From Desulfosudaceae bacterium (GTDB taxonomy: Bacteria > Desulfobacterota > Desulfobacteria > Desulfobacterales > Desulfosudaceae), in NCBI GenBank assembly GCA_963674745.2, contig CAXXDV010000001.1, positions 960,001-1,024,000 of the forward strand: a stretch of DNA of 64,000 nucleotides, in the 5' to 3' direction. The position numbers and the translations under genes were made by a program. Shown piece after piece: positions 37,317 to 63,893 of this stretch (its first letter is position 1; the number at the start of each line of letters is the position of its first letter). Under the pieces are notes generated by a model. The model had not been told where the DNA came from and ran no database searches. It worked only from the letters and a program-made list of their open reading frames with translations.

Positions 37317-37541
37317 AATGATGTCCGTTCAGATCAATTATCCGGAATTAAAACAGCTCAATCAATCATATGGTTTTTAGACCGATCAGTCAACACTATA
37401 CATGAAAGGGGTTTTTATTGCCGATGATTGACAAAAAAAACTGTTTTGGTTATATTTTAAATTTGAGGTCTTTTTCATCCCTGTCAGACGTTCATTGCCC
37501 TGACAGTGTGTTCTTCCACAGTAGCGACAAGGAACCACTAT

Positions 37542-37922
37542 ATGCCCCCTGGCAAAACAGTAGACAAAGAAAGGCTGAACCAGCTTCTGGGCGATGTCCG
37601 TCGCCGACGCATGCAATCGGAAAAAGGGTATCGTGAACGGGCCTTGAAACTGTTTCCGCACATCTGTGCTCATTGCGGGCGGGAATTTTCAGGCCAGCGG
37701 CTGAAAGAGCTTACCGTTCACCACAAAGACCACAATCATGACAACAACCCGCCTGACGGCAGCAACTGGGAACTGCTCTGCCTTTATTGCCACGAAAATC
37801 AGCACGCCCGCCAGGCGGTCGCCGACGCCTACGACACGTCGACCGACAACCAGAAAGAAAAATCAACGTTAACGCATCAACCCTTTGCCGGGTTGAGCGC
37901 GTTGCTGCAAAAAAAAGAGTGA
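37542..37922 (+). CDS. yajD: YajD family HNH nuclease
   Basis: GYRERALKLFPHICAHCGREF..LKELTVHHKDHNHDNNPPDGSNWELLCLYCHENQH; SD AAGGA. Confidence 0.9.
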   Translation: MPPGKTVDKERLNQLLGDVRRRRMQSEKGYRERALKLFPHICAHCGREFSGQRLKELTVHHKDHNHDNNPPDGSNWELLCLYCHENQHARQAVADAYDTSTDNQKEKSTLTHQPFAGLSALLQKKE

Positions 37923-39588: not shown

Positions 39589-40476
39589 TTAAGAAGCCCC
39601 CAAAAGTGTCCGGCTGAAAAAATCGGCCTGCAGGGCAGACAGCTTCTCAAACAGATCACCGACATAAACCTCAAAGTGGCCCACCGGCAAGACTTCCAGC
39701 TGAACGGATTTAATCCCGGCCGCGCATTTGCGAACCGCTTTTTCCGGAATAAGGGAGTCTTTTTCGGCACATATCATCAGCACCGGACAGTTGACGCGCG
39801 AGGCAAATTTTACCGGCCGGTAACTGGCCAGGGTCAGGGCGATCCTGGCCGGTGCCTTGTTTTCCCAGGTGGTATCCTGCGGCACCAGGGCCATAAAACC
39901 ATCCCTGGCGTCGGGTGTGTTCATCAGGCCGAAACGGTCGGGTTCGGAGATCACCGGCACATAATGCGCCTTGCCGACCAGTGACGCGAAAAAATCCATC
40001 AGCCCGTGACCGATACCGATAAGATTAAACAGGGGCGGCAGGCTCAGGGCCGTGGAGAGGCCGTCCACAAACGGCACCTGGGAAACCACCGCCGCGACCT
40101 GTCCGTCTCCGGCAGCGGCTGCCAGCACATGCCCGCCGGAAAAAGAAGTGCCCCAGAGGCCGATGCGGTTACCGTCCACCTGATCCAGCCTGCGAGCGAA
40201 TTCGATGGCCGCCAGCCAGTCTTCGACATGACGTTTGGGGGCGACCAGGTTTCTGGGCTCTCCGTCACTTTGGCCGAAATTACGGTAATCAAAGGTCATC
40301 ACCGCCAGCCCGCGTTCGACAAATTTTTCCGCGTAAGCCGGCAGGCGAAAATCCTGCTGAGCGCCGAATCCATGGGCCATAACCGCCACCGGCGGTTTTG
40401 CCGTTTCATCCGGCAAAAAAATCCTGGCCCCGCATCTGACGCCGCTGCTCTTAAAGTCTGTTTCCCGGACGATCAT
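39589..40476 (-). CDS. Alpha/beta hydrolase
   Basis: MAHGFG, FDYRNFGQSDG, nucleophile GTSFSGG, D(SLIP), GHF; ATG 40476 with SD AAGGAG. Confidence 0.9.
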   Translation of the reverse strand: MIVRETDFKSSGVRCGARIFLPDETAKPPVAVMAHGFGAQQDFRLPAYAEKFVERGLAVMTFDYRNFGQSDGEPRNLVAPKRHVEDWLAAIEFARRLDQVDGNRIGLWGTSFSGGHVLAAAAGDGQVAAVVSQVPFVDGLSTALSLPPLFNLIGIGHGLMDFFASLVGKAHYVPVISEPDRFGLMNTPDARDGFMALVPQDTTWENKAPARIALTLASYRPVKFASRVNCPVLMICAEKDSLIPEKAVRKCAAGIKSVQLEVLPVGHFEVYVGDLFEKLSALQADFFSRTLLGAS

Positions 40477-40528
40477 GTTTTCTCCTTCGCGCCTCATCCG
40501 GAGAGTGCCCCTGAAATGTTGTACGCCA

Positions 40529-41710
40529 CTAGGCCGCCCGGTAATCCCGGGAAGAATCGGGAACATCAAAATCCAGGGCATCAAAGACCGGTTTGTAAAT
40601 GGTCATCATTTCGCTCATGTCTATCCCGAACTGCTCCAGTGAGTAGCTGTGCCGGCTGACATAGCCGCGCGATCGCATGGATTCTTCTTTCAGTTTCAGC
40701 TCAAACTCAGGATTCAAAGGGAGATGGAAAGTGGCATAAATATGCCGTATGTGGGCTTCCAGGTCTTTGATCAGGTCATCATACCGTGAGGTAAAAAACT
40801 TGTCCGGTTTAAAGTCAGGCCTCTGTTCAATGGGATACATGTAACCGTTATAAATAAACGCCATAAGTTCCTGCTTATGCTCAAAAACATTCTTGAGTTT
40901 CATACCGAAGATCCCGAAAAAGAGCGCCTGCAGGCTGAAATCGGAAGGGACCAGCTCCATGGGCGTCCGCACCGGATTAATCACCCTCACGTCCGGACAC
41001 ATCTGCTGGATCGACTTGATTTTAAATGAACAGGCGGGGTTTTTTGACAGAAAGATCTTGTCCGGCCCATGAAAATAAAGGTGCCGCTGGATACAGCGTT
41101 TGTAGAAAGCCATGATAAACCGTTTTTCTTTTTTCGACATCAGGTGGTCGAAATAAAAAAGCTTTCTGACATGCTCGAAATATGGAAACATGAAAGAGAT
41201 AAAAAACGTGCTGAAGGTATTGAGCAGCAGCAGATCGTCCTCTTCGTTTTCAAACAGGCTTACCCGGCGAATATCATATGTCGATTTAAACAGCAGCCAG
41301 TCCATGGCCCGGACAATCTTGTACAACAGGCCGAACAACAAAAGGGCATCCAGCCGGTTGATCAGCATCAACAGCTTTCGTTGCACCACCGACGGCGCGA
41401 ACACCAGTTCCCACAGCAAAAAGCTGGTGAACTGACTGTCTTTGGACATGGTCCGGTGAAGATGAGTGGCACCGCTTCTGGGAACACCGAATATAAATAC
41501 CGGTGCCTTGATTTTCACTTTTCGAAACCCGGGATAAAAAACATGATCCAGCGCCAGGCAGATCCAATTGATGGCGATATTCACCAGAATCAACGGCACC
41601 ATCACCGCCAGGCAGAAAATCCGGTATGGACTCAAAGGTGTTCCGTACTTTCGGCCATTGAAGATGGCAATAAGATACAATTTTGCCACAAGCAAAAAAT
41701 TAAAAAACAT
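40529..41710 (-). CDS. PAPS-dependent sulfotransferase family protein with N-terminal membrane anchor
   Basis: PVFIFGVPRSGATHLH (5'-PSB loop), ENEED, LSKNP, VRTP..S, RYDDL..D. Confidence 0.85.
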   Translation of the reverse strand: MFFNFLLVAKLYLIAIFNGRKYGTPLSPYRIFCLAVMVPLILVNIAINWICLALDHVFYPGFRKVKIKAPVFIFGVPRSGATHLHRTMSKDSQFTSFLLWELVFAPSVVQRKLLMLINRLDALLLFGLLYKIVRAMDWLLFKSTYDIRRVSLFENEEDDLLLLNTFSTFFISFMFPYFEHVRKLFYFDHLMSKKEKRFIMAFYKRCIQRHLYFHGPDKIFLSKNPACSFKIKSIQQMCPDVRVINPVRTPMELVPSDFSLQALFFGIFGMKLKNVFEHKQELMAFIYNGYMYPIEQRPDFKPDKFFTSRYDDLIKDLEAHIRHIYATFHLPLNPEFELKLKEESMRSRGYVSRHSYSLEQFGIDMSEMMTIYKPVFDALDFDVPDSSRDYRAA

Positions 41711-41762: not shown

Positions 41763-41804
41763 AAAAAAGCCGGGATACCCCTGTTACATCAGGGCATCCC
41801 GGCT
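41763..41804 (-). terminator. Intrinsic terminator forming the riboswitch expression platform
   Basis: Minus strand AGCCGGGAUGCCC-UGAUGUAACAG-GGGUAUCCCGGCU followed by a U-tract; the 5' arm overlaps the aptamer 3' end. Confidence 0.85.
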
Positions 41805-41868
41805 GTCTTTTAAAAAGATCCTGGGCTTTCCGCTCCCGGATGTCCGGGATTAGCTTTTTCCTGATCTT
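41786..41868 (-). ncRNA. GEMM-I (c-di-GMP-I / c-AMP-GMP class) riboswitch aptamer
   Basis: Minus strand AUCAGG-AAAAAG-CUAA-UCCCGGACAUCCGGGA-GCGGAAAG-CCCAGGAUCUUUUUAAAAGACAGCCGGGAUGC-CCUGAU; P1 AUCAGG/CCUGAU; conserved CUAA, CGGAAAG and ACAGCCGGGAUGCC. Confidence 0.85.
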
Positions 41869-41901
41869 AACCACTAATTAAGAACAACATTCACTAACCG
41901 A

Positions 41902-41930
41902 ACGGTATGTTATTGCCTCCTTGCTGTCAA
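41902..41930 (-). promoter_or_regulatory. Sigma70 promoter driving the riboswitch leader
   Basis: TTGACA (41930-41925), N17, TACCGT (41907-41902). Confidence 0.65.
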
Positions 41931-42070: not shown

Positions 42071-43339
42071 TTATCGTAGGCTCCGCTTTTTCTTTGCCTT
42101 TACACCGTACTTTTTGCGATTTCGATCAATTTTTATGGCTGTCATCAACCCCTTGTCCCGCACGGCAAACATCTTCAGCCCCAGGCGGCCCATGTTAAAA
42201 AAACGCTTTCCGTATTTGCTTAATTCTTTCTCGTTAATTTCAAATCCCAGTCCCGGCAGCCTTGGCGGATTCAGTACCCCGCGATCATGGTGAAACTTTT
42301 CAACCAGCAGCCCGTCGCGTTTATCCACCACCCATGACGGTGGATTAAGCGGATACTCAAGAGGCTTGCGGCCGTTGAAACCACTGGCCAGCATAAGCTG
42401 AAGGTTCACGGCAAAACCGATGCCGTTGGTCCAGGTATGGGGTGTGTATAAAAGATCGTTTTCGCGACACAGCCTGGCCACTTCCATTGTCTGGGCGATA
42501 CCGCCGGTCATGATGGCATCCGGTTGAAAAATATGATAACATTTTCGCTCGATCATCATCTTCAGCTCGGCAAACCCGTTGGTATGGATTTCTCCGCCAC
42601 TGATGGGCACCCGGCTGTAAGCGGTCAGGGCGGCCTGATCGTCATAAGCGTCCATGGGCAGGGGTTCCTCCAGCCAGGCCACGCCCAGGTCGGCACAGGC
42701 ATCGGCAAAATTTTTAGCCCGCGCAAGGTCCCACAGGGGGGCATCATTGACAATGGTCACCCGCCAGGCCTGGTTGGCATCCACGCCGATATTAATTTTA
42801 TCACCCATGGCCACGGCCACGGCTTCCACCTGGGCAATGTCCTTTTTAATATCAAAGTCATGCACCCGCAGCTTGACGCTTTTAAAGCCCTCTTCATAGC
42901 GCTGCTGAACTTCTTCCACCCGCGCCCGGGGTGATTTCACCTCCCCGGTTGACGCATACAGCGCGACCGGTTCGTGTTGACCGCCCAGCAGTTCATATAC
43001 GGGCTTGTTTTCCAGCTTGCCCGAGATGTCCCAGAAAGCGGGCTCCATCCAGTTGGCGCGAACCCCGAGGTAGGACACTTCCCGCAGACGCTGCTGGATC
43101 AGCGGAATATCAGTGGCATCAACATCGATCAGGTAGGGTGTGATCAGTTCTCCCAGGCCTCTGCGCTCGGTGGAGATGGCCGGGCCGGCGGAATATCCCT
43201 GAACGCCGCTTGCCGTGGTCACACGGACAAGGTCAAACCGGTTTTCGGTCTGGGGATACCCCGGAATCCAGCTGGGATAAAACGGTTTATCAAGGGGGAT
43301 ACGAACATGAAACAGTTCAATGCGTGAAATTTGGCTCAT
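42071..43339 (-). CDS. Mandelate racemase/muconate lactonizing enzyme (enolase superfamily) protein
   Basis: AFWDISGK..PVYELLGG, KSVKLR, VDANQ, WLEEP, SGGE, QPD, PHTW, PGLGFE. Confidence 0.92.
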   Translation of the reverse strand: MSQISRIELFHVRIPLDKPFYPSWIPGYPQTENRFDLVRVTTASGVQGYSAGPAISTERRGLGELITPYLIDVDATDIPLIQQRLREVSYLGVRANWMEPAFWDISGKLENKPVYELLGGQHEPVALYASTGEVKSPRARVEEVQQRYEEGFKSVKLRVHDFDIKKDIAQVEAVAVAMGDKINIGVDANQAWRVTIVNDAPLWDLARAKNFADACADLGVAWLEEPLPMDAYDDQAALTAYSRVPISGGEIHTNGFAELKMMIERKCYHIFQPDAIMTGGIAQTMEVARLCRENDLLYTPHTWTNGIGFAVNLQLMLASGFNGRKPLEYPLNPPSWVVDKRDGLLVEKFHHDRGVLNPPRLPGLGFEINEKELSKYGKRFFNMGRLGLKMFAVRDKGLMTAIKIDRNRKKYGVKAKKKRSLR

Positions 43340-43561: not shown

Positions 43562-44566
43562 ATGTCTGTTTATACCCGCCAGCTGATGAATTGCGTGGAA
43601 ATCGGCAAGGCCGTTACTTCGGCCGCCAACATGGAGGAAATTACCGCCGTCATCCTCAAGCGCCTCAGCGAATTGATCAAGGCCCGGAACTGGACATTAT
43701 ATCTGCTGGACCATGAACGCGAGGAGCTGATCTTCGCCCTGGTGATGGGGCTGGATTATAATCTGGTCAAAGATCAACGCATTAAGCTGGGAGAGGGTAT
43801 TGCCGGTAAAGTGGCCCTGACCGGAGAACCCATTTCCGTTCGCAAAGAAGTGGGGCACGACCCGCGCTTCAACCCGGAGATCGACTCGCTGACGGGGTTT
43901 AAGACGAAATCCATCATATGTATCCCGCTTAAAGCCCAGGGCCGTGTGATCGGTGTGCTGGAAGTGATCAATCCTCAGGACACATCGCTTTTTGAAGACG
44001 ACTATCAGCCGATCCTGTCCATTCTGGCGGATTTCACCGCCATCGGCATCGTCAACGCCCGGGTCTATGAAGAAATCAACCGCCTGGTCATTACCGATGA
44101 TGTCACCGGCTGTTACAACACCCGTTTCCTGCATGATTTCCTGAAACAGGTCATCGACAGCGGGCAGGAAGTTTCCCTGGTGTTTCTCGATCTGGACGAC
44201 TTTAAAAGCGTGGTGGACACACACGGACACCAGCTTGGCAGTAAAATGCTAAAAGAGGTGGCGACCACCCTGGTGGACAGCGTTGATCGCCAGGACCGCC
44301 TGGTCCATTACGGAGGGGACGAGTTTGTGATTATCTTTCCGGGGCAGGACAAGGCCACGGCCCTGGCCAAGGTTGATAAAATTCGAAACACGCTTGAGAA
44401 AACGGCGTTCCTTCAGGAAGAAGGCCTCCAGGTCCCCATCAGCGCCAGTTTCGGCGTCGCCGGCTGCCCTCATGACGCGCCGGATCAGAAAAGCCTGCTC
44501 CAGCTGGCCGACAACGCGCTCTACCGCAGCAAGGATAAAGGCAAAAACGCGGTCACGGTGATGTAA
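43562..44566 (+). CDS. GAF-GGDEF dinucleotide cyclase with Hypr-type Asp->Ser substitution
   Basis: GAF (GEGIAGKVA..DPRF..TGFKTKSIICIPL..IGVLEVIN); DLDDFKSVVDTHGHQLGS; YGGDEF; ADNALYRSK..GKN. Confidence 0.9.
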   Translation: MSVYTRQLMNCVEIGKAVTSAANMEEITAVILKRLSELIKARNWTLYLLDHEREELIFALVMGLDYNLVKDQRIKLGEGIAGKVALTGEPISVRKEVGHDPRFNPEIDSLTGFKTKSIICIPLKAQGRVIGVLEVINPQDTSLFEDDYQPILSILADFTAIGIVNARVYEEINRLVITDDVTGCYNTRFLHDFLKQVIDSGQEVSLVFLDLDDFKSVVDTHGHQLGSKMLKEVATTLVDSVDRQDRLVHYGGDEFVIIFPGQDKATALAKVDKIRNTLEKTAFLQEEGLQVPISASFGVAGCPHDAPDQKSLLQLADNALYRSKDKGKNAVTVM

Positions 44567-63242: not shown

Positions 63243-63893
63243 ATGAATCAAATCGATTTTAATTCTTTTTACACACGACTTGAAAAAGAAAAGCTTATTT
63301 CCTCCCAAAAGGAGTTGGCTTCAATATTGGGACTGAATAACTCCGCAATAAGTCAGGCAAAAACAAGGAATTCCATACCACTTGGGTGGGTCGTCGTTCT
63401 TTCTGAAAAATTGGACCTGAATCCTCAATGGATTAAAACCGGAGTTGGAAAAAAAGATCTCCGTGATTTGAGTGACGAAAATGACTTTGAGGCTGTTCCA
63501 AAAGTGAAAGCAAGGCTGTCTGCCGGTGGCGGTTCTTTTGATGTAAAGTCTGATATCGAAGGATTCTATTCTTTTCAGAAAAAATGGTTAAGACAAAAGG
63601 GCCGCTCGCAAAAAATGGTTTTAGTGGATATTGTTGGCAATAGCATGGAACCAGAGCTAAAAAATGGGGACACTGTTCTTGTTGATCAGTCTCAAAATGA
63701 AATCCTGGCTGGCGCCATATATGCTGTTGGTATTGACGATATTATAATGGTTAAGAGAATAGAGAAGCTACCTGATACGCTTGTTTTACGTAGCGAGAAT
63801 AAAGACTACCCGCCAACGCATTTACATGGGGAAGAAGTGAATCGTGTACGAATATTGGGGAAAGTGATATGGGTGTGCAGAGAAATCAATTAA
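63243..63893 (+). CDS. CI/LexA-like repressor (HTH + S24 autopeptidase)
   Basis: SQKELASILGL..SAISQAK HTH; cleavage site LSAGGG; catalytic GNSMEP and MVKR. Confidence 0.92.
   Translation: MNQIDFNSFYTRLEKEKLISSQKELASILGLNNSAISQAKTRNSIPLGWVVVLSEKLDLNPQWIKTGVGKKDLRDLSDENDFEAVPKVKARLSAGGGSFDVKSDIEGFYSFQKKWLRQKGRSQKMVLVDIVGNSMEPELKNGDTVLVDQSQNEILAGAIYAVGIDDIIMVKRIEKLPDTLVLRSENKDYPPTHLHGEEVNRVRILGKVIWVCREIN

Follow-up and report, generated by a model that had tools for sequence, protein, structure and literature searches.

On the minus strand of the 64,000-nt window (the whole stretch of DNA that was analysed), a divergent member of the GEMM-I riboswitch class lies in the 360 nt that separate an enolase-superfamily gene (42071-43339) from the ATG (41710) of a sulfotransferase-family gene; the class is a known one, and the element is not a new kind of system. 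Taken together, the data point, with a probability of roughly 0.55, to a c-di-GMP-responsive transcriptional ON switch that falls within the G20 subgroup of the class and controls a putative operon made of the sulfotransferase-family gene and an alpha/beta-hydrolase gene. A promoter-like site, the aptamer and a terminator follow one another in this order between 41930 and 41763; all three had been described in the first-pass annotation of this DNA, and every coordinate given there agrees with the sequence. The features, including a neighbouring cyclase gene, are as follows:

41902..41930, minus strand: promoter-like site, TTGACA (41930-41925), 17-nt spacer, TACCGT (41907-41902)
41788..41865, minus strand: GEMM-I (c-di-GMP-I class, Rfam clan CL00126) aptamer, 78 nt, aligned over its full length to Rfam family RF03167 (35.1 bits) and also matched by the covariance models R1 and R2 described below
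41865-41860 with 41793-41788, minus strand: P1, AUCAGG with CCUGAU, a perfect 6-bp helix
41859-41854, minus strand: J1/2, AAAAAG, the equivalent of G20 being 41854
41853-41830, minus strand: P2, UCCCGG-ACAU-CCGGGA, 2 + 6 bp, with the loop ACAU at 41843-41840
41827-41796, minus strand: P3, a long hairpin with an A bulge
41832 and 41803, minus strand: interhelical pair, C (model position 34) and G (model position 66), both present at the sequence level
41854, 41829 and 41794, minus strand: equivalents of the ligand contacts G20, A47 and C92, respectively (cmscan alignment)
41763..41804, minus strand: intrinsic terminator, 14-bp stem (41804-41791 with 41781-41768), 9-nt loop, U6 at 41768-41763
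40529..41710, minus strand: first gene, sulfotransferase-family protein of 393 aa from the ATG at 41710 (Pfam PF13469 Sulfotransfer_3, E 9e-21)
39589..40584, minus strand: second gene in the putative operon, coding for an alpha/beta hydrolase (Pfam Peptidase_S15, Hydrolase_4 and Abhydrolase_1)
43562..44566, plus strand: GAF-GGDEF cyclase (Pfam GAF and GGDEF), divergent, 1.6 kb upstream of the promoter-like site

With a promoter-like site ahead of it, a terminator overlapping it and an ORF starting 53 nt downstream, the aptamer occupies the place of a 5' leader element. The pattern TTGACA-N17-TAnnnT had two matches in the 64-kb window (both strands, 128 kb) vs. 0.19 expected from shuffled sequences. 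Its -35 hexamer TTGACA is perfect. The promoter-like site is absent from the list of the generic promoter scan, which passed over it because its -10 hexamer TACCGT matches only three of the six consensus bases, and the same kind of scan saw no promoter-like site between the terminator and the ATG at 41710. As for the terminator, its 9-nt loop is longer than the limit of 8 nt of the generic terminator scan, where it is unlisted. A terminator-like hit of that scan on the opposite strand, which corresponds to the P2 hairpin, was regarded as an artefact.

At gathering scores, Rfam provided no match for the element in the window, and the score under RF01051 must lie below the gathering score of 35 of that family. 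When E-values were used for reporting, the best match was RF03167 (c-di-GMP-I-GGC), with 35.1 bits vs. a gathering score of 59 (E 1.8e-6 for a 701-nt region and 1.7e-4 for the whole window against all 4227 families); the other sub-threshold matches (STnc430, azaaromatic, miRNAs and a snoRNA) had E-values of at least 1.8 and were dismissed. The core pattern CUAAWCC ... GGRNCRGAAAGCC ... AGCCNNGNUGC, which has one match in the window vs. 0.00 expected, was used to scan a genome collection, where it was found in at least 122 stretches (flanks were taken for 80), the window's own genome lying outside the matches listed. At least 133 distinct aptamers were obtained, and nearly all of the matches listed derive from Desulfobacterota, among them Geobacteraceae and Desulfuromonadales. 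The scaffold with the CUAA/CGGAAAGCC core is the one found in the Geobacteraceae and in other Desulfobacterota, in agreement with the earlier description of a Geobacter-type CUAA/CGGAAAG core.

A covariance model, R1, was built from 15 relatives in other genomes, with the window excluded. It gave the window element 54.3-54.4 bits, with an E-value of 2.8e-14 that is rough, as is the calibration behind it. The next-best site in the window reached 12.2 bits (128 kb, filters off), and no second GEMM-I copy was found in the window with R1 under these settings. Concerning the structure of the family, 95.2% of the cells are paired in a MAFFT alignment of the 15 relatives, which is independent of the model, and 94.8% are paired in the 130 distinct rows of a larger alignment fitted to the model and its structure, with 13 of the 21 pairs changed on both sides and 0 of 500 shuffles as high. 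The Rfam null is therefore a threshold effect and not an absence, because of the sub-threshold RF03167 match and the R1 match. The check proposed with the first-pass annotation, a search with Rfam covariance models, returned nothing at gathering scores, yet the GEMM-I assignment itself is upheld by the full-length RF03167 alignment and the R1 score. On these scores and alignments, the element is a genuine, divergent homologue of the GEMM-I class, beyond the reach of the general Rfam models. Standard annotation would miss it, since it falls under every Rfam cut-off, and the yield of curated thresholds in the Desulfobacterota is probably understated, a lineage-specific model having revealed a clear homologue here.

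The P1-P2-P3 junction architecture is covered by the full-length alignments to both RF03167 and R1. The cmscan alignment keeps the equivalents of all three Vc2 contacts G20, A47 and C92, including the G at 41854 to which the first reading had drawn attention; these contacts and the interhelical C-G pair are named as defining in the portions consulted of PMC4744006 and PMC6140456. In addition, 22 of the 24 columns that are invariant across 138 relatives among the matches listed are kept in the window. The two others are an A to U change at 41849 and a G to A change at 41834, positions facing one another in the uppermost part of the P2 internal loop, where a U-A pair is possible, and the replacement of the invariant A/G juxtaposition by this potential pair may be read as a compensated double change.

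The P2 hairpin UCCCGG-ACAU-CCGGGA had been noted for its lack of a GNRA tetraloop, and both the sequence and the 130-row alignment agree with this. Among the matches listed, each of the 129 distinct relatives carries GNRA as its P2 loop, together with A in the 41849 column and G in the 41834 column; of the 130 distinct copies in the alignment, the window copy alone lacks the GNRA loop, and it has one base pair fewer in P2 than the relatives. Two P2 types are described for GEMM-I in PMC11218506, as far as that source was available, namely type I with GNRA and receptor and type II with GYRA and the receptor absent; the window loop ACAU fits neither description. In the Cd1 GEMM-I riboswitch, the tetraloop mutant A24-26U is reported in the accessible part of PMC9262584 to show no binding. 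Function is not assured, since the window copy stands alone among the 130 in this respect, and a weakening or abolition of ligand binding by its unique P2 is a real possibility. Moreover, the P2 strands AUCCCGG and CCGGGA repeat the terminator 3' arm and the P3 3' strand, which is why an alternative fold is preferred when the aptamer is folded alone: in the MFE structure the P2 5' strand pairs with the P3 3' strand, at -25.8 vs. -23.2 kcal/mol for the GEMM-I structure. Folding of the isolated aptamer does not reproduce the GEMM-I fold, which is a caveat and not a refutation, thermodynamic folding ignoring both the ligand and the tertiary contacts.

The sub-gathering Rfam score, the low rank under R1 (133rd-134th of the 136 family matches listed), the loss of the GNRA loop and the alternative aptamer fold all stand against the c-di-GMP ON-switch reading. 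The last three, together with the Cd1 mutant, are also what would be expected of a decayed aptamer that no longer binds a cyclic dinucleotide and leaves the terminator as a constitutive attenuator or under some other control. Such a decay appears unlikely, although it deserves some weight: beyond the conserved columns and the mutually compensating nature of the two changes, the 6-bp P1 is perfect, none of the pocket bases and neither partner of the interhelical pair is lost, and PMC11218506, in the text available, describes GEMM-I members that lack a tetraloop receptor. The downstream ORF is also intact and has a clear Pfam match, whereas a dead switch ahead of a 14-bp terminator would silence it. 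We infer that the window aptamer binds its ligand despite the missing GNRA loop. If this is true, it would be a GEMM-I aptamer that functions in nature with no tetraloop contact at all, and the sulfotransferase/hydrolase operon would join the cyclic-dinucleotide regulon.

The terminator hairpin is G+C-rich and folds alone at -27.6 kcal/mol, and both it and the P2 hairpin form in the MFE fold of the leader (-50.5 kcal/mol, z = -4.4, with 0 of 200 shuffles folding as well). The 5' arm of the terminator (41804-41791) is made of the interhelical G, the P3 3' strand, the C92 equivalent (J3/1) and four bases of the P1 3' strand. Since the 3' part of the aptamer doubles as this arm, aptamer and terminator are mutually exclusive. 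In terms of secondary-structure energy alone, the terminator state has -50.5 vs. -34.2 kcal/mol for the state in which P1 is enforced; because the former is far more stable, the default state would be OFF, with ligand needed for read-through. The same overlap design is seen in six relatives with G at position 20 (loci L081, L121, L016, L034, L096 and L037), in which the 5' arm of the hairpin reads AGCCGGGYUGCC, with a run of U after the hairpin, and GEMM-Ib switches act through such terminators according to the sections seen of PMC6456294. The ON-switch arrangement proposed in the first-pass annotation is thus borne out by the overlap, the MFE fold and the layout of the relatives.

In the mechanism that we propose, transcription would start from the TTGACA-N17-TACCGT site and, without ligand, the 14-bp terminator would form and end transcription ahead of the sulfotransferase gene. 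Ligand, most likely c-di-GMP, bound at the P1/P2/P3 junction would keep the P3 and P1 3' strands in the aptamer; with the 5' arm of the terminator sequestered in this way, the sulfotransferase and alpha/beta-hydrolase genes would be transcribed (ON).

The identity of this ligand was addressed through the two types of copies present in the family. Among the 133 distinct copies listed, position 20 is A (the cGAMP type) in 121 and G in 12. In the A-type copies listed, the A directly precedes CUAA in the stereotyped context ACGAYAAUA-CUAAACC, and the column numbering agrees with the Gs1761 contacts G8, A11, A12, U13, A14, C15, A41 and A42 as given in the excerpts of PMC7288161. The G copies listed come for the most part (10 of 12) from non-Geobacter or unclassified lineages, in which GAUAAAG or GAAAAAG is the common J1/2; these lineages comprise Desulfatirhabdium, Desulfobacteraceae, Desulfobulbaceae, Desulfobulbus, Desulfamplus, UASB14, Methylomonas and others. 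In a structure-based search of 85 loci and the window, G copies amounted to 23 of the 130 distinct rows, window included.

The window element scores 54.4 bits under R1 and 40.3 bits under R2, the A-type model. The G-type relatives have 79-94 bits under R1, which are high by construction as these relatives form its training set, and 34-60 bits under R2, while the sampled A-type copies, most of which are in the R2 training alignment, have 67-80 bits under R1 and 84-109 bits under R2. The J1/2 AAAAAG, the plain six-pair P1 and these model scores place the window copy, as judged from its sequence, with the G subgroup. As for the features of the GEMM-Ib type, the base at the position-20 equivalent (41854) is G instead of A, and a comparison of alignments found neither the J1/2 ACGAYAAUA nor the bulged P1 (GAUA.../...UAUC) of the Geobacteraceae copies in the window.

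A separate observation concerns the name of the best Rfam match. The GGC of c-di-GMP-I-GGC presumably stands for the bases at positions 20/47/92, and RF03167 has G at its model position 37, the A47 equivalent; the window and the G-type relatives have A there, including those relatives that pass the RF03167 threshold (60.6-75.8 bits). Because of this A at position 37, the window was not accepted as c-di-GMP-I-GGC, and the label is questioned for the relatives. On that reading of the name, none of these aptamers, the window's included, would be a GGC variant, and their RF03167 label would reflect similarity of the scaffold.

According to the parts consulted of PMC6140456, G20 pairs with one of the guanines of c-di-GMP, and cGAMP is bound by wild-type Vc2 only at 10 uM. 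For near-identical aptamers of Desulfobacca acetoxidans, PMC9481103, as far as it was available, associates G with a strong preference for c-di-GMP and A with a gained affinity for c-AMP-GMP. The genes that follow the G-type relatives code for adhesins, PEP-CTERM proteins, a TPS exoprotein and a 1717-aa Ig/beta-helix protein or belong to a WecG glycosyltransferase locus, and are typical c-di-GMP targets. Because of the agreement in pocket and J1/2 with the G subgroup, the Desulfobacca precedent and the target genes of the relatives, c-di-GMP is favoured as the predicted ligand of the window aptamer. The first-pass annotation had left the ligand preference open, a doubt that was overstated in view of the matching pocket and J1/2 but that holds to the extent that the preference for c-di-GMP is a prediction.

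Alternatively, the element could be a cGAMP-responsive or dual c-di-GMP/cGAMP riboswitch, in which a lower P2 of the GEMM-Ib type and the remodelled P2 would shift the selectivity towards 3',3'-cGAMP. The scaffold is mostly of the A type, as seen above, and the P3 of the window is nearest, among the matches listed, to that of A-type Geomonas silvestris copies (about 90% identity over 44 nt, with the same A.C mismatch). In addition, according to the available text of PMC9262584, the G20 equivalent and mutations of the lower P2 tune selectivity and are not a hard filter, and some natural GEMM-I members are reported to be bispecific in that of PMC6140456. The cGAMP-type pairs of the lower P2 and the role of G20 as less than a hard filter are accordingly further points against the c-di-GMP reading. 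This alternative is nevertheless held to be quite unlikely. The base that pairs with the variable base of the ligand is G and not A; J1/2, P1 and the model scores group the element with the G copies; in Desulfobacca, G goes together with c-di-GMP (PMC9481103, as cited); and the lower P2 pairs (C-G and U-G), being identical in G-type and A-type relatives, favour neither ligand.

Concerning the genes placed under the predicted c-di-GMP switch, the sulfotransferase-family protein has a hydrophobic N-terminus; its PDB matches were 2zq5 and 2z6v, both weak, with no others, and no NCBIfam match was found for it. The start codon of the hydrolase is uncertain, its longest ORF overlapping the stop of the sulfotransferase gene, and its NCBIfam match to the UilS-type lactonase (162.9 bits, below the cut-off of 400) indicates a distant likeness. 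If the two proteins served to modify components of the envelope or the matrix, this would be in keeping with a c-di-GMP ON switch.

The remaining argument for another ligand comes from the neighbouring GAF-GGDEF protein, which is encoded by the only GGDEF gene among the 51 window ORFs scanned and had been called a Hypr-type cyclase. This proved half right. At the Hypr position the protein has Ser, LGSKML aligning to IGDEVL of PleD (D344) and VGSQVL of 6d9m, and its motif is YGGDEF; the Hypr signature is described in the portion seen of PMC6456294 as Ser/Thr (GacA Ser348 / PleD D344), always with a GGDEF motif. The position of the base-contacting Asn (GacA Asn339 / PleD N335) is, however, occupied by Val (FKSVVD vs. 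FKGVND in 6d9m and FKKIND in PleD), residue alignments giving Asn in PleD, DosC, MorA and 6d9m. The best PDB match of the GGDEF domain is the Geobacter Hypr domain 6d9m, and that of the GAF domain is 5w10. Since the base-contacting Asn is replaced by Val, the product of the cyclase is itself uncertain, and so is the synthesis of 3',3'-cGAMP that might be predicted from its sequence.

The combination of Val with Ser/Thr, always accompanied by GGDE[F/Y], was seen in 119 of 121 proteins, namely the window cyclase and its best 120 homologues (54-97% identity); the two others fall outside the matches of the Val/Ser pattern search. Of the homologues among these best 120 that carry a name, the closest (78% identity) belongs to a Thermodesulfobacteriota MAG.

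The nearby Hypr-like cyclase is the last of the points that count against the c-di-GMP reading. In the cGAMP or dual alternative considered above, this enzyme, with its Hypr Ser, its GGDEF motif and 6d9m as best PDB match, could supply 3',3'-cGAMP, an argument that is weakened by the Asn to Val change. As regards the local signalling circuit suggested in the first-pass annotation, the link between riboswitch and cyclase consists of a distance of 1.6 kb, a divergent orientation with one intervening gene, and nothing else. When six window proteins were compared by tblastn with the at least 122 loci listed, which hold no relative of this locus, no homologues of the sulfotransferase, hydrolase, enolase-family, TPR and Fe-S proteins were found, and GGDEF homologues occurred in seven of them. 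A motif scan of the same set, again of loci unrelated to this one, gave three GGDEF active sites, all with the canonical Asn/Asp and none of the Hypr type.

If the product of the Val/Ser-type GAF-GGDEF proteins were neither c-di-GMP nor cGAMP, the aptamer could sense this product as another kind of nucleotide signal. That the family almost always has Val in place of the Asn and Ser/Thr in place of the Asp suggests an altered reading of the substrate, and the cyclase gene is both close and the sole GGDEF gene scanned in the window. Such a signal is highly improbable, the ligand-contact bases being the same as in ordinary G-type relatives and distance alone linking the two genes. It is likewise improbable that a cyclase family with an altered nucleotide preference and a riboswitch retuned to its product form a local pair that controls a cell-envelope sulfotransferase operon. 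The product would then be, as part of the same improbable proposal, cGAMP, both dinucleotides or another purine dinucleotide, and it is with equally little probability that the remodelled aptamer, which combines G20 with a cGAMP-type scaffold, lacks GNRA and has U-A for A.G in P2, would represent such a retuning. The reading as a c-di-GMP-responsive ON switch is retained as the most likely one. Specialists may find more of interest in the filing of A-bearing relatives under the GGC model and in the large Val/Ser GAF-GGDEF family than in the riboswitch.

Among known systems, the window element was compared with the G-type aptamers of the CUAA scaffold (L016, L018, L034, L037, L081, L083, L096, L111 and L121, from Desulfobacterales, Desulfobulbales and others). 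It shares with them the J1/2 (G/A)A(U/A)AAAG, G20, the CU/GG lower P2, CGGAAAGCC and AGCCGGGNUGCC, and a terminator whose 5' arm overlaps the P3 and P1 3' strands is common to the window and most of these relatives. They differ in their scores (60.6-75.8 bits under RF03167 and 79-94 under R1, which was built from them, vs. 35.1 and 54.4 for the window), in the sequence CUAAACC (CUAAUCC in the window), in a P2 that is longer by one pair and capped by a GNRA loop (ACAU in the window), and in being followed by genes for adhesins or PEP-CTERM proteins instead of a sulfotransferase gene.

The Geobacter GEMM-Ib riboswitches (Gs1761, pgcA riboswitch) have the CUAA...CGGAAAGCC...AGCCGGG scaffold and, as described in the part seen of PMC6456294, terminator-based ON switching as in the window; they carry A20, the J1/2 ACGAYAAUA and the P1 GAUA.../...UAUC, whereas the window has G20 and lacks the other two. 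Vc2 of Vibrio cholerae (RF01051) resembles the window in its three-helix junction, G20/A47/C92 and the interhelical C-G pair, going by the excerpts of PMC4744006 and PMC6140456, and differs in the lower P2 (G-C/C-G in Vc2 vs. C-G/U-G in the window) and in its GAAA tetraloop with receptor. The c-di-GMP-I / c-AMP-GMP trio of Desulfobacca acetoxidans, in which one base (G/A) switches the preference and which is predicted to be ON, is likened to the window by description, from the available text of PMC9481103; the trio is in tandem with AdoCbl riboswitches there, and Rfam found no AdoCbl partner in the window. As for the cyclase, the Asn position is occupied by Val, and DRQD takes the place of the RxxD inhibitory site of PleD and 6d9m. 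Its architecture and Hypr Ser are those of MxGacB, the cAMP-activated GAF-Hypr GGDEF protein of Myxococcus xanthus, to which it is likened by description (bioRxiv 10.1101/600031).

The GAF-GGDEF protein encoded near the riboswitch belongs to a large family with a conserved Val plus Ser/Thr pair. The genes of the window considered here, all on the plus strand, are:

43562–44566 (+), Hypr-like GAF-GGDEF cyclase
37506–37922 (+), small HNH endonuclease ORF
63243–63893 (+), CI-repressor/Peptidase_S24 protein, close to the window end

In 119 of the 121 proteins examined (that of the window and its best 120 homologues), Val occupies the base-contacting Asn position (PleD N335) and Ser or Thr that of the guanine-specifying Asp (D344), the pair being accompanied by GGDE(F/Y) every time. 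The RxxD inhibitory site of PleD and 6d9m corresponds to DRQD in the window protein. Among Hypr-like cyclases, this family may represent a separate subclass with a specificity of its own. The HNH endonuclease ORF adjoins a TTGACA-N17-TAnnnT match (37428–37456), the only one in the window besides the promoter-like site of the riboswitch.

At two Geobacteraceae loci of the genome-collection scan, GGDEF-domain genes lie downstream of A-type (cGAMP-type) aptamers:

L068, 6001–7129, region of the aptamer and GGDEF-domain gene
L044, 6001–7152, region of the aptamer and GGDEF-domain gene

Since both genes start about 600 nt 3' of an aptamer on the same strand, these cyclases may be controlled by a cyclic-dinucleotide riboswitch. 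In Geobacteraceae, two further aptamers combine the complete A-type scaffold (87–96 bits with R2, the A-type covariance model) with G at position 20, in the contexts AACG and AAUG:

L056, 5990–6066, aptamer
L097, 297–372, aptamer

In both, a cGAMP scaffold has undergone the A-to-G switch naturally. Two loci with typical Geobacter-type aptamers, L023 and L077, are on contigs assigned to Pedobacter sp. and Dongiaceae MAGs, a placement that probably reflects binning contamination.

As for the window leader, the pairing elements are:

41844–41850, 41834–41839, 41796–41801 and 41771–41776 (-), repeated pairing strands of P2, P3 and the terminator
41840–41843 and 41786–41789 (-), P2 loop ACAU and complementary AUGU of the terminator loop GAUGUAACA

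AUCCCGG occurs twice (P2 5' strand and terminator 3' arm), as does CCGGGA (P2 and P3 3' strands). The four strands can therefore substitute for one another in pairing, and the isolated aptamer has an alternative fold. A 4-bp contact between the two loops in the OFF state is possible, though the complementarity may be due to chance; the relatives, having GNRA loops, offer no counterpart for comparison.

Nine G-type aptamers (L016, L018, L034, L037, L081, L083, L096, L111 and L121) scored 60.6–75.8 bits with RF03167 (c-di-GMP-I-GGC), above its gathering threshold, even though model position 37 is A in them rather than G. As a consequence, clan competition puts ordinary G/A/C-pocket aptamers into the variant family. 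One of them, in a Desulfobacteraceae MAG, lies 2.5 kb downstream of a cobalamin riboswitch:

L018, 3255–3471, cobalamin riboswitch
L018, 5991–6067, G-type GEMM-I aptamer

This pairing is reminiscent of the AdoCbl/c-di-GMP clusters reported for Desulfobacca acetoxidans (PMC9481103).
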